Virus record (IMG/VR): IMGVR_UViG_3300009181_000080
Coordinates: 1-62,025 of that record
DNA length: 62,025 bases
Strand: one strand, 5' to 3'
From: a virus
Taxonomy: Duplodnaviria; Caudoviricetes
Of the stretch, positions 1 to 9,133 are shown one piece after another. The notes under the pieces were generated by a model. The model was not told the DNA's origin. It saw nothing but the letters and a program-made list of their open reading frames with translations, and did not search any database. The stretch's first letter is position 1. Each line of letters starts with the position of its first letter. A program made the translations under genes and the position numbers.

Positions 1-26
1 AATCTAATATAAGAGGGATATGCCAT

Positions 27-550
27 TCACTAGTATATCTGTGAGTGTTATATTCTTCTTTCCATTTCAAGACTTACTGCGTAAGTCTATTGATATCGCT
101 ATCGCTCATCAATGTATTGTTTTTTTTAATTGTTTTTGTTTTTAGATAGTATCATCCAGATTAATTGGTCACACTTTGCCCGCACTGGGCAAAGATAAGA
201 TCTGTAGCATCATCCGAGTAGCACAGTCACTTAGCGTTACAACATTACAGAGGCGGTTGTCCGGTACCTCGAGTTGTGTCTTTATACAACGGCGGTCCAC
301 AATATATACGCTAACATACTTGTGAACGTGTAGCATCACTGCTACGTCTTTTAGCCTTTAATTTTATTCAAACAATCAAACCGCGGCGATTAGCGATCTT
401 CGTCCTGTTAAGGATAGTGATTGAGTGCTCTTTACAGCAAAGAGTCTTCCGTCCCTGTGACCCGAGGTCCAGTTTTTATGGGCATCCGTGATTAGCTGAT
501 GCTAGCCTGTATACTGTATTTGTGTTACGAGCCGGACTTTGTGTCGGAAG
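27..550 (-). ncRNA. Candidate large structured non-coding RNA (alternatively an origin-like element) downstream of the GIY-YIG gene
   Basis: No ORF in the track and about 10 inverted repeats, e.g. 71-87 GACTTAC/GTAAGTC, 174-194 CTTTGCCC/GGGCAAAG, 330-345 GTAGCA/TGCTAC (GUGA GNRA loop on minus), 403-414 TCCT/AGGA (UAAC loop on minus), 428-444 CTCTTT/AAAGAG, 459-469 and 482-502. G-U pairs work in the minus sense. Boundaries are approximate. Confidence 0.6.
147..230 (-). repeat. Twin direct repeat GTGAC-N10-GGATGATRCTA (205-230 and 147-172) flanking a strong hairpin
   Basis: Minus strand reads gtgac-tgtgctactc-ggatgatgcta and gtgac-caattaatct-ggatgatacta. Period is 58 nt; the hairpin at 174-194 lies between the copies. 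Confidence 0.85.
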
Positions 551-556
551 TGATTG

Positions 557-985
557 TTAAAACTTATTTATAATGTGGGAGCCATGGACACGGACAGAGA
601 TCTGACCGTTATAATAATCTGTAGTTTCCAATACCTTACGGTTAAATTGTTCTCTTGCTTCTACATAACTGCATTCTGCTTTGCTTTTGCAGTAGTATAG
701 TATTTCTCTTGTAAACTTGTCAACACCCAATGTTTCCACGTCTTTGTTTAATTCTACGTTAGATCCATAATATGTTTGCCAATCCGAATCTACTTTGCTT
801 TTAATTCTCTTGCGTTTTTTCTTACCGTTTTTTAACTTTACTACCTTATACGACGTTTTACTAAATTTCGATAATTTTTTTCCAACATATTTCCTACCAG
901 ATATTGTATTTGTGATCAAATATACAAAACCAATACAGTTTTCGGGCAGAGATTCTACTGGGATATTTTCGTGTAGCCATGTCAT
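557..985 (-). CDS. Small GIY-YIG family nuclease (Seg-like catalytic domain only)
   Basis: GFVYLITN...KYVGKK, basic insertion, YYGS, REIL, conserved Glu (VEAREQ) and YYN. No C-terminal DNA-binding domain. Confidence 0.85.
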   Translation of the reverse strand: MTWLHENIPVESLPENCIGFVYLITNTISGRKYVGKKLSKFSKTSYKVVKLKNGKKKRKRIKSKVDSDWQTYYGSNVELNKDVETLGVDKFTREILYYCKSKAECSYVEAREQFNRKVLETTDYYNGQISVRVHGSHIINKF

Positions 986-1016: not shown

Positions 1017-1871
1017 CTAACATAATTGCACCTCACGTTGCCATTGGTTTGTAAAACTATTATTGCGTCCAGAACATGTTGCACGACACACAGGATGCGG
1101 ATCAGTGTTCCATGTCGCGGATACTTGTTCTAAAGTGACAAAGTTTGTTTGTGTACTGCCCAACCAACAGCATGGGCTAACACGGCCCTGTGCATCTATA
1201 TAGGTACTTTGTTCTTGTACTGCAATACATTGTATCGGACCCGTTTCCTGCCTGGGATCTTGCCACCCAACGGGAAACTCTAGTCCGTTAATATATGGGC
1301 GTTTACTAACTTTGGCACGGAACCAGGTAAATCCCAAGGAATGTGCAAATTCTGCACATTGGTCAACTTGATGTTGATTGTGTGCATACACTAGCATATC
1401 CCAGTGAGCATGGCCACCTGCATCAATAAATGCTGTTGCATTTTCAATTAATTTACCCCAATTACTGTTTTTACGGTATATGTGATTTGTGTCTTCTAGC
1501 CCATCTATACTGAACACAACATAGTCTCTAGGTTGATCGAGTAGTTTGCCAAGATGGGTCCACCATTTTTTTGTTTGTAATCCACCATTGGTATTCATTC
1601 CCAATGTAATCGTGGGATTAACACTTCTAAAGTATTTGTATATATCCACAGTATGTGCGCCTGCCGCCGGATCGCCATAATTGCCGCACATAAACATTTT
1701 ATCCAACTGTTGGATAAATCCTATATTAAACTTATCTTTAATTTGCTCAACAGTTAAGTGATGTTTAAGTGCTTTGTTGAAAGCAGGATCTGTTTCGCGG
1801 GCACACAGCGGACATGCCAATTGGCAAACATCCGTTGGTTCTACATGCAGTACCTTAGGTGATATCAACAT
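1017..1871 (-). CDS. Radical SAM protein with C-terminal SPASM/twitch-like domain
   Basis: CQLACPLC (CxxxCxxC), GNYGDP, TNG, FSIDG; C-terminal C...IDAQGRVSPCC...CRATC. Confidence 0.9.
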   Translation of the reverse strand: MLISPKVLHVEPTDVCQLACPLCARETDPAFNKALKHHLTVEQIKDKFNIGFIQQLDKMFMCGNYGDPAAGAHTVDIYKYFRSVNPTITLGMNTNGGLQTKKWWTHLGKLLDQPRDYVVFSIDGLEDTNHIYRKNSNWGKLIENATAFIDAGGHAHWDMLVYAHNQHQVDQCAEFAHSLGFTWFRAKVSKRPYINGLEFPVGWQDPRQETGPIQCIAVQEQSTYIDAQGRVSPCCWLGSTQTNFVTLEQVSATWNTDPHPVCRATCSGRNNSFTNQWQREVQLC

Positions 1872-8113: not shown

Positions 8114-9133
8114 ATGCCAGTGCTACCAAGTGGATATATGGGAAATACGTTGGGGTCGACCCTGCTAAGATCAGCATCCGAAGGTGCGTTTGGCAAAAAC
8201 GCTTTTGCCCGCACAAATTCTCAAAGTATGTTCCAATATTCAGGAGCATCGTCGACCTCGGGCGTAGCCGGCGCCTCTGTAACTTTTCCAAATGCATCAT
8301 CAGATTGGCGAGTACGGATAACACTACCCCCGAACGCTGACTATTTTGGACTTAAAGACGGTACAAACGCATTACTAAGCCCTCTGATAACTGAATCGTC
8401 GATCCCCAGCCAAGGGGGACTTGGCAGGATTATTGCTGATGGGATCGCCAAAGTCGGCGGTAATATCTTCGGGACAAACAGTACCTCCGGAAATAAAAGA
8501 GTTGGTGTAATATTTCCCTATACTCCGACTATATCAATGACCCATACTGCAAATTATGAACCACAAAAATTAGTGCATAATAATTATACACAGCATCATT
8601 ATACCAATTCCGACGTAGGGCCAATATCTATCACAGCTGAGTTCACAGTGCAAAATATCACAGAAGGGCAATACTTACTGGCCTGCATATACTTTTTTAG
8701 GACAGTGACCAAGATGTTTTTTGGACAGGATAAAAATGCAGGAAATCCTCCACCGATAGTATATCTAAACGGATACGGACAATATTACTTGCCCAATGTA
8801 CCGTGTGTGGTAACAAGTTTCCAACACACGATGCCTGCAGAGTGTGACTATATAGATATCCCCGAACCAACACTAACACAGCAAGGATACTATAACCCTA
8901 AGCTAGCAAACTATCGATTAAACAGCACTAGATTACCCACTACCAGTTCGATGGTAATATCAGTACAACCAATTTATAGCCGTTTGGCACAAAGCCAGGG
9001 CTTTAGTCTTGAAGATTTCTCAAGAGGCGCATTAATTAATCCAGTTGGATCTGCACTACCAAGTTGGGGTGGCGGAGCAAGTACTACTGCCAGCAAAAAT
9101 GTTAGTAATAGTAAAAACGGTGGATTCCTATAA
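8114..9133 (+). CDS. Baseplate/tail tube initiator-like structural protein
   Basis: DWRVRI, FPYTPTI and GNPPPIVYLNGYG...VPCVVTSF motifs; first gene of the baseplate cluster. Confidence 0.6.
   Translation: MPVLPSGYMGNTLGSTLLRSASEGAFGKNAFARTNSQSMFQYSGASSTSGVAGASVTFPNASSDWRVRITLPPNADYFGLKDGTNALLSPLITESSIPSQGGLGRIIADGIAKVGGNIFGTNSTSGNKRVGVIFPYTPTISMTHTANYEPQKLVHNNYTQHHYTNSDVGPISITAEFTVQNITEGQYLLACIYFFRTVTKMFFGQDKNAGNPPPIVYLNGYGQYYLPNVPCVVTSFQHTMPAECDYIDIPEPTLTQQGYYNPKLANYRLNSTRLPTTSSMVISVQPIYSRLAQSQGFSLEDFSRGALINPVGSALPSWGGGASTTASKNVSNSKNGGFL

Follow-up and report, generated by a model that had tools for sequence, protein, structure and literature searches.

Twin heptamers that vary in concert within the 3′ domain of a large structured RNA of giant freshwater phages

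The window analysed here is a whole viral contig of 62,025 bases (IMG/VR record IMGVR_UViG_3300009181_000080; CheckV completeness 18%), which carries near its start, at 147-230, a twin sequence motif arranged around a hairpin. The twin region belongs, as 3′ domain, to a structured non-coding RNA of the phage that is about 440 nucleotides (nt) long and lies on the minus strand (~507->65). Each of its two units contains a heptamer that differs between phages and is the same in both units of one RNA. We propose, with a confidence that falls slightly short of an even chance, that the RNA presents the same short recognition loop twice, to one trans-acting partner.

On the plus strand the motif reads ATCATCC-AGATTAATTG-GTCAC at 151-172 and ATCATCC-GAGTAGCACA-GTCAC at 209-230. 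On the minus strand, unit 1, GUGAC-UGUGCUACUC-GGAUGAU (230->209), is separated from unit 2, GUGAC-CAAUUAAUCU-GGAUGAU (172->151), by a hairpin of 8 base pairs (bp) consisting of CUUUGCCC (194->187), the loop AGUGC and GGGCAAAG (181->174). A preliminary description of this DNA had reported twin GUGAC-N10-GGAUGAU units with differing cores and an 8-bp hairpin between them, and they are present as written. With up to one mismatch allowed, GUGAC-N10-GGAUGAU was matched twice in the 62,025 bases, both strands being searched, and both matches lay at the twin locus; the expectation from shuffling was 0.16 (standard deviation 0.42, 100 shuffles), and two of the 100 shuffles reached two matches. Stronger proof that the pattern is not due to chance comes from its recurrence, since a pattern scan of a viral-contig collection found the exact twin in 63 other stretches. 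Overall, the twin domain was found in more than 200 viral contigs. The heptamer sequence by itself, GGATGAT, occurs 13 times in the window, compared with an expectation of 7.3 ± 3.2.

Across these loci the heptamer varies. Eight types were present among 130 distinct variants parsed from 161 loci, and three further types were recovered from variants missed by the regular expression and from a scan based on the Polynucleobacter-1 motif (see below), giving a total of 11: GGAUGAU, AGAUAAU, GGAUGAA, GGAUAAU, AGAUGAA, AGAUGAG, AGAUGAU, GAAUGAU, GGAUGAG, GAAUAAU and GCAUAAU (consensus NNAURAN). Heptamer 1 was identical to heptamer 2 in all 130 distinct variants, in 4/4 variants whose divergent flanks had defeated the regular expression, and in 122/122 aligned sequences. 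The same held for 135/135 distinct variants when both 7-mers were left fully free, a test in which 159 of 238 loci were parsed and 79 were not, because of the strict flank anchor. At positions 1, 5 and 7 the copies share as much mutual information as the entropy allows (0.94, 0.89 and 1.01 bits, respectively), and in all other columns from -400 to +150 the mutual information with the heptamers is at most 0.56 bits. A tree for which the twin columns were left out requires at least 29 changes of heptamer type, as against 66.7 for shuffled labels. Recombination may inflate this count, but even when it is allowed for, 11 types with matched copies require at least 10 double changes. Concerted change, in part or in full, also extends to the base before the triplet that precedes each heptamer, to the two bases ahead of that one, and to the second base past the heptamer.

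Some positions within this zone nevertheless keep the two units apart. In 130/130 distinct variants unit 1 has the triplet CUC and unit 2 the triplet UCU, and the base after the heptamer stays G in unit 1 and A in unit 2, being identical in only 13/130. With such differences in the midst of the concerted zone, gene conversion that homogenises blindly is an unlikely explanation. More generally, it seems very improbable to us that the copies are identical without any function, having been homogenised by repeated gene conversion or by slippage between short direct repeats. Rearrangements do occur, as one locus (L067) lost unit 1 and the central hairpin H2, but its breakpoints are not at the heptamers, continuous identity extends over only ~7-10 nt, and the CUC/UCU positions in the middle of the zone never homogenise (0/130 identical). 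Heptamer identity must thus be selected. Since the copies always mutate together, they probably constitute a shared "address" to one partner, and it is the heptamer, not the N10 core, that behaves as the variable specificity segment.

The twin region belongs to a larger RNA. A cmscan search placed Polynucleobacter-1 (Rfam RF01718) at 507->370 on the minus strand over the full model (1-141), at 115.3 bits where the gathering score is 37 (E = 2.6e-24); this match sits 140 nt upstream of unit 1 on the same strand. Apart from a chance match to mir-145, no other Rfam family was returned by cmscan for window 1-700 at E values up to 10. The twin region at 147-230 falls outside the RF01718 model, yet inside the same conserved RNA. 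Polynucleobacter-1 was found just upstream of the twin, on the same strand, in 20/20 twin loci tested, which were 20 of the 63 exact-pattern stretches that had no match to a strict regular expression for the core. A 17-mer from the conserved core retrieves at least 119 viral-contig stretches, and a scan for the Polynucleobacter-1 pattern in which the twin was not used retrieved at least 120 stretches with 63 new loci. The twin was present in all 52 of the new loci that had enough downstream sequence (49 recognised by script and three, with GCAUAAU in both units, by eye).

In an alignment of 37 loci, conservation runs unbroken over the entire RNA, from ~507 to 65 in window coordinates. The 5′ Polynucleobacter-1 domain is followed by two covarying hairpins, a near-invariant core, an optional inserted hairpin, the motif UAACGCU and the twin domain. 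After these come a small hairpin with a UUC loop, a hairpin with a GA/GAA internal loop and a GNRA-type loop, and a terminal hairpin (70-88) that likely forms the 3′ end of the RNA. In the window the UUC-loop hairpin is replaced by an A-rich spacer, which corresponds to the T-rich tract at 114-146 correctly noted in the preliminary description. The optional inserts, seen in L011, L029, L030, L054 and L063, comprise ~30-90 nt, fold as extra hairpins and occupy one fixed point between the core and UAACGCU; the window and many other loci carry none there. One hairpin loop of Polynucleobacter-1, located on the minus strand at 397-420 in the window and correspondingly in relatives, alternates between GNRA tetraloops (GCAA, GAAA, GCGA, GAGA or GUAA) and the hexaloop UURACM, a kind of switching typical of tertiary contacts. 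The hairpin at 89-113 contains a GC clamp of 2 bp. Its 5′ strand, frequently UGAUGAGC, looks hammerhead-like, yet only two strands are present.

Six metatranscriptome runs contain part of window 1-560. In four runs, from four studies, contigs cover 168-588 without mismatch, as well as 113-145 and parts of the upstream gene; none of the contigs from these four runs covers 1-112. They are a weak hint of expression, as the contigs are strandless and DNA carry-over is possible. Promoter and terminator scans gave results at chance level only.

In a table of Weinberg et al. (2010; PMC2864571), Polynucleobacter-1 is rated as a likely cis-regulatory RNA from Burkholderiales and fresh water. The element described here occupies the same locus and strand and is accompanied by the twin domain wherever this was tested, but whereas the Rfam model stops 140 nt short of that domain, we observe ~300 nt of further conserved structure. 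As to cis-regulation, in loci of the window type the RNA is followed by convergent genes, so that it is not a 5′ untranslated region there. In L003, L009, L034, L072, L073 and others, mostly of the AGAUAAU types, a gene on the same strand starts shortly past the terminal hairpin, and at loci with such a gene the RNA could serve as a 5′ leader. We found no publication describing the twin domain; the supplementary lists of a catalogue of viral structured RNAs (PMC10690425) might include the region.

Within the twin domain, the best supported element is the central hairpin H2, in which 93.3% of alignment cells are paired (71 sequences). One of its pairs occurs as UA 40, AU 9, GC 5, GU 5 and CG 3 times, and its basal pair is U-G in 16 cases; such pairs fit the minus strand only. 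The 5′ half of core 1 pairs with the linker that follows heptamer 1: cognate duplexes reach an energy of -3.21, compared with -2.29 ± 0.12 for non-cognate ones (z = -7.7, n = 117). Folds of isolated unit 1 agree, with -5.32 versus -3.87 ± 0.15 kcal/mol and 5.3 versus 3.7 pairs spanning the heptamer. When hairpin 1 is scored by the fixed columns of a MAFFT alignment only 42.6% is paired, because the pairing register shifts between relatives. The pairing of core 1 with the sequence after the heptamer places heptamer 1 and the preceding (A)CUC in a loop of ~9-12 nt. The base at position -3 and the base after the heptamer can also pair, as C-G in 125/130 variants for unit 1 and as U-A or U-G in 124/130 for unit 2, and a closing pair is possible in each unit.

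For core 2, four nearby segments considered as partners gave cognate versus non-cognate z scores of only -1.3 to -2.8. A segment in a Polynucleobacter-1 hairpin loop reached z = -6.1 in a sliding scan and was discarded, as the listed pairs lack convincing complementarity. A single-sequence fold of 100-370 gave z = -1.42, and folds of the 130 twin regions were mutually inconsistent. In L067 (anchor 8517-8533, plus strand), unit 2 was kept when unit 1 and the central hairpin were lost; this is the sole such case among ~190 variants.

These results allow the preliminary description's interpretations to be revisited. Its general idea of an RNA element, with two equivalent short segments displayed around a hairpin, is retained at the RNA level. 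Its specific model, in which a C-like box GGAUGA and a D-like box GUGA form kink-turns around a pair of guide segments like those of C/D RNAs or IS110 bridge RNAs, now appears hardly credible. In sequence terms GUGA and GAUGA could form tandem G-A pairs with an adjacent U-U, and in the first 63 loci variable cores did lie between fixed-looking flanks. However, the boxes are not conserved. GGAUGAU, supposed to be a fixed flank, is identical within each phage but exists in 11 types between phages; its second GA is lost in the AUAAU types (A at position 5 in 39/130 distinct variants), and it starts with AGA instead of GGA in 46/130 and with GAA or GCA in further variants. The GUGA box is GUGG or AUGA in some variants and never CUGA, whereas box C/D RNAs conserve RUGAUGA as box C and CUGA as box D. 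A kink-turn consists of a canonical stem, a 3-nt bulge, tandem sheared G-A pairs and a non-canonical stem; as read from the alignments, no arrangement of GUGA with a GA of the heptamer appears to give this stem-bulge order beside hairpin 1 or H2. The proposal that the N10 cores are guides is contradicted by the internal pairing of core 1, an outcome that the description itself had named as refuting it, and no site complementary to the loops at 13 or more of 14 positions, other than their own opposite strand, was found in five phage records (the window and four contigs of relatives, among them one 99%-complete genome). Genes for L7Ae (PF01248), the IS110 recombinase (PF01548), CsrA and reverse transcriptase were absent from all four phage records searched, two of them 99-100% complete. 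A bridge RNA would be encoded beside an IS110 (DEDD + Tnp) recombinase, whereas this locus has genes for a GIY-YIG protein and a radical SAM protein next to it, together with baseplate genes.

We also give little credence to the view that the units are direct repeats in DNA, of the iteron, operator or packaging type, read by a sequence-specific DNA-binding protein beside an A+T-rich tract, of which the origin suggested in the preliminary description is one form. Iterons are identical within a replicon and differ between replicons, which is the pattern seen here, the A/T-rich tract at 114-146 is present, and the locus lies between convergent gene blocks. Against this, there are only two copies, and they are part of a gene for a structured RNA, in which G-U pairs fitting one strand only and compensatory changes occur and heptamer 1 is enclosed by a covarying stem. 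The A/T-rich tract is not conserved, being replaced by a hairpin in most relatives, cumulative GC skew has no extremum at the locus in a 99%-complete relative, and the number of variants would be hard to match with a co-evolving protein.

According to the recognition-loop proposal, each heptamer (NNAURAN) would be shown behind three invariant pyrimidines (CUC for unit 1, UCU for unit 2). Most likely, the loop would offer its 7-mer for base pairing with a short complement encountered two times, on separate molecules or at separate sites; alternatively, the partner may be an RNA-binding protein with the symmetry of a dimer. The heptamers would be kept identical by selection, as each copy has to fit this one partner. 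A nucleic-acid partner, perhaps derived from the host, would best account for the number of variants, the transition-only differences and the U-turn-like context. It is favoured by the 11 heptamer types together with the independent concerted variation of flanking bases, and also because no residue of the two neighbouring proteins co-varies with heptamer type (for the GIY-YIG protein, the maximum mutual information is 0.38 of ~0.95 bits). Moreover, the four fixed differences between units are all transitions (C/U, U/C, C/U and G/A), so that one strand containing G and U could pair with both units. The bases C-U-C-R and C-U-R-R before the heptamers would fit the YUNR pattern of U-turns. Taken further, the twin heptamers may be a programmable address of 7-14 nt, particular to each phage lineage and written twice, with which the RNA would seize two complementary copies of a host or phage nucleic acid in a guide-like manner; we rate this extended version as unlikely.

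Several observations weigh against the proposal of a shared recognition loop. Positions 1 and 5 are purine-only and A3, U4 and A6 are invariant; this looks more like structural or protein constraint than free guide-target pairing, and would be easier to explain with a symmetric protein. Past its possible closing pair, no stem in unit 2 is supported. The metatranscriptome contigs carry no strand and give no ends. A search of cognate against shuffled sequences gave no cognate-specific complement of the heptamer inside the RNA. Besides the lack of 13/14 complementary sites mentioned above, a predicted common partner (heptamer complement plus GGG) had no match in the same five records, and neither the heptamer nor its complement is enriched in the phage's own genome. 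Two candidate partners failed as well: hairpins bearing the complement in the relatives G001 and G004 are not homologous, and the anticodon loops of phage transfer RNAs (tRNAs) do not track the heptamer.

Other candidates were set aside in the same search. The T-arm of transfer-messenger RNA (tmRNA) gave a single strong duplex that is specific to the core of G001, and a 13-nt match in G001 lies inside a coding frame. In the window, 12-13-mers complementary to the loops occur at chance level only. No further sites of three pyrimidines plus heptamer in the context of the twin were present in the five phage records, the few other matches having unrelated flanks. Coding readings (mini open reading frames, a sense-plus-stop codon, take-off and landing sites) were rejected because frames are not kept and the lengths of core and linker vary. 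Possible likenesses to group I introns, RNase P and hammerheads found no support in Rfam.

The absence of a complement, outside or in cis, would be expected if the units touched one another, or both touched a common part of this RNA, with identity itself required, as in a symmetric tertiary module or a short parallel like-with-like pairing without any outside partner. A parallel register would give A-A, C-U, U-C, C-U, the heptamer with itself, and G-A, each pair thus being like-with-like, purine-purine or pyrimidine-pyrimidine, and the rest of the RNA looks compactly folded, including the Polynucleobacter-1 loop that alternates between GNRA and UURACM. On the other hand, natural RNAs are not known to contain long parallel like-with-like helices, and an antiparallel contact between heptamers would not force identity; we therefore judge such an intramolecular contact to be distinctly unlikely.

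The constant spacing of two identical sites that flank a stable hairpin could instead indicate twin processing sites, at which one sequence-specific endoribonuclease would release a piece of ~58 nt (H2, GUGAC and core 2). These phages process many RNAs, and relatives carry ~28 tRNAs and a permuted tmRNA gene. This explanation is also rather improbable, as it leaves 11 heptamer types unexplained without co-variation of an enzyme, the RNA contigs give no ends, and no nuclease candidate is tied to the locus, the neighbouring GIY-YIG protein showing no co-variation. We thus return to the shared recognition loop as our preferred explanation; the features of the RNA on which it is placed are given in Table 1.

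Table 1. Features of the RNA locus in window coordinates, and RNA genes of related phages (record handle before the colon).
Feature	Position	Strand	Evidence or remark
5′ domain, Polynucleobacter-1 RF01718	370..507	-	cmscan, 115.3 bits
Two variable middle-domain hairpins (~346->328 and 327->295)	295..346	-	Compensatory stem changes in the 37-locus alignment; 327->295 also recovered by RNAalifold on 80 sequences, 346->328 read from the alignment only
Most conserved middle-domain core, GCCGUUGU...AGGUACCGGACAACCGCC	252..293	-	Columns nearly invariant
UAACGCU, directly 5′ of unit 1	233..239	-	Conserved; hairpin of up to ~90 nt inserted before it in some relatives
GUGAC of unit 1; last C begins the stem of hairpin 1	226..230	-	Variants GUGGC, GUGAA, GUGAU, AUGAC
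Hairpin 1: CUGUGC (226->221), loop UACUC+GGAUGAU (220->209), GC(U)ACAG (208->202)	202..226	-	Cognate energies
Heptamer 1 GGAUGAU, after invariant CUC	209..215	-	Same as heptamer 2 in all distinct variants
Central hairpin H2, CUUUGCCC-AGUGC-GGGCAAAG	174..194	-	93.3% of cells paired, 71 sequences
GUGAC of unit 2, directly 3′ of H2	168..172	-	Sequence and alignments
Core 2 CAAUUAAUCU, variable; last bases track those of core 1	158..167	-	No pairing partner detected
Heptamer 2 GGAUGAU, after invariant UCU	151..157	-	Same as heptamer 1
A-rich spacer (T-rich on the other strand); UUC-loop hairpin in most relatives	114..150	-	37-locus alignment
Hairpin AUUGAU-GA-GC-GAUA-GC-GAU-AUCAAU, with GA/GAA internal loop and GNRA-type loop	89..113	-	GAGCG...GCGAA conserved, outer stem covaries
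Terminal hairpin AGACUUAC-GCA-GUAAGUCU	70..88	-	Covarying stem (alignment, RNAalifold)
Upstream neighbour, stand-alone SegE-type GIY-YIG protein of 142 amino acids	557..985	-	PF19835, E = 9.1e-31
tRNA clusters	L264:13608-19963 and L265:89-7992 (G001); L283-L284 (G003); L270-L271 (G004)
Permuted (two-piece type) tmRNA genes	L264:7900-8233 (G001); L271:8643-9014 (G004); L283:11681-12075 (G003)

The genes around the RNA are syntenic, in the order gp46-like SbcC ATPase, radical SAM protein(s), SegE-type GIY-YIG protein and RNA. Downstream of the RNA, convergent genes that include a T4 baseplate-hub-like protein are found in most loci, and a gene on the same strand in a subset. After the gp46-like ATPase there is no gp47/Mre11-like gene; instead, the window (1017-1871, minus strand) and relatives encode between one and three radical SAM proteins at this place. 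The radical SAM copy of the window carries CX3CX2C at its start and matches PF04055. The GIY-YIG cluster has 58 members among 64 loci, and homologues occur in 472 cultured phage records; this protein is a core gene of the phage group. No large gap lies behind the gene of the nearest cultured homologue, that of phage Melnitz. The GIY-YIG protein is syntenic with the RNA, and a partner role for it would be hypothetical.

Among 50,697 records of cultured phages there was no DNA match to window 1-560. Bacterial genomes gave five matches to the RNA region, all on contigs of 1.5-4.5 kb in metagenome bins (L178-L182; Flavobacteriales, Bacteroidetes and one unclassified), and these are probably phage DNA binned with bacteria. 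Two relatives of the window measure 345 and 355 kb and are rated 99-100% complete; the phages with this RNA are T4-like, live in fresh water and have giant genomes (~350 kb). Clusters of tRNA genes and a permuted tmRNA gene, in which the acceptor/T-arm piece with CCA precedes the coding piece, are present in G001 and in two incomplete relatives (G003 and G004). G001 (345 kb, 99% complete) encodes 28 tRNAs, a nearly full set in which the CAU anticodon occurs three times. The tags encoded by the tmRNAs are ANDEQFALAA (G001), ANDEVFALAA (G004) and AANDELFLAAA (G003).

Judged by analogy, the twin domain would be most like paired recognition loops such as boxB, Csr sponges and kissing loops, and it has the defining features of none of them. 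In the Csr/Rsm sponges CsrB and RsmZ, GGA motifs in hairpin loops are bound by the two faces of a CsrA dimer. The repeated, short, purine-rich loop motifs at two sites tens of nt apart are similar here, and the window loop UACUCGGAUGAU resembles the CsrA consensus RUACARGGAUGU from systematic evolution of ligands by exponential enrichment (SELEX). However, the sponges have an invariant GGA in many copies, whereas the present RNA has two sites only, in which AGA, GAA or GCA may replace GGA, and its phages lack a CsrA gene in the four records searched.

The boxB elements of lambdoid nutL and nutR are likewise two copies of one hairpin loop, identical within a phage, different between phages and read by one factor. 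They are sites in two separate transcripts and follow the N protein, in contrast to the copies described here, which are 58 nt apart in one large RNA and come in far more variants. The loops of antisense RNAs and the U-turn loops of anticodons also present 6-7 nt behind a Y-U-N-R-like turn, with a specificity that differs among close relatives. For ColE1 RNA I/II and CopA/CopT the complementary partner is known and is encoded by the opposite strand or at another site. The searches made for the present RNA yielded no partner, and what marks it out is that its two loops are identical rather than complementary. GOLLD and ROOL, which belong to the large ornate RNAs of phages and bacteria, resemble the present RNA in being highly structured, in having no assigned function and in being carried by phages with tRNA clusters (bioRxiv 10.1101/2024.12.08.627333), but there is no relation in sequence or in Rfam.

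Polynucleobacter-1 has been an orphan motif of ~140 nt since 2010 and now becomes one domain of a much larger phage RNA, which is conserved across hundreds of contigs from giant phages of fresh water that also encode sets of tRNAs and a tmRNA of their own. Its twin loops provide a rare and clean evolutionary signal, that of sites which must stay identical while drifting, and this signal points to where the RNA touches its partner. Searches for structured RNAs that score only complementary covariation would miss such a like-with-like constraint. If the twin heptamers were indeed a guide-like address, giant phages would contain an RNA-guided system of a new class, which could be recognised by covariation of the identity type instead of the complementarity type.

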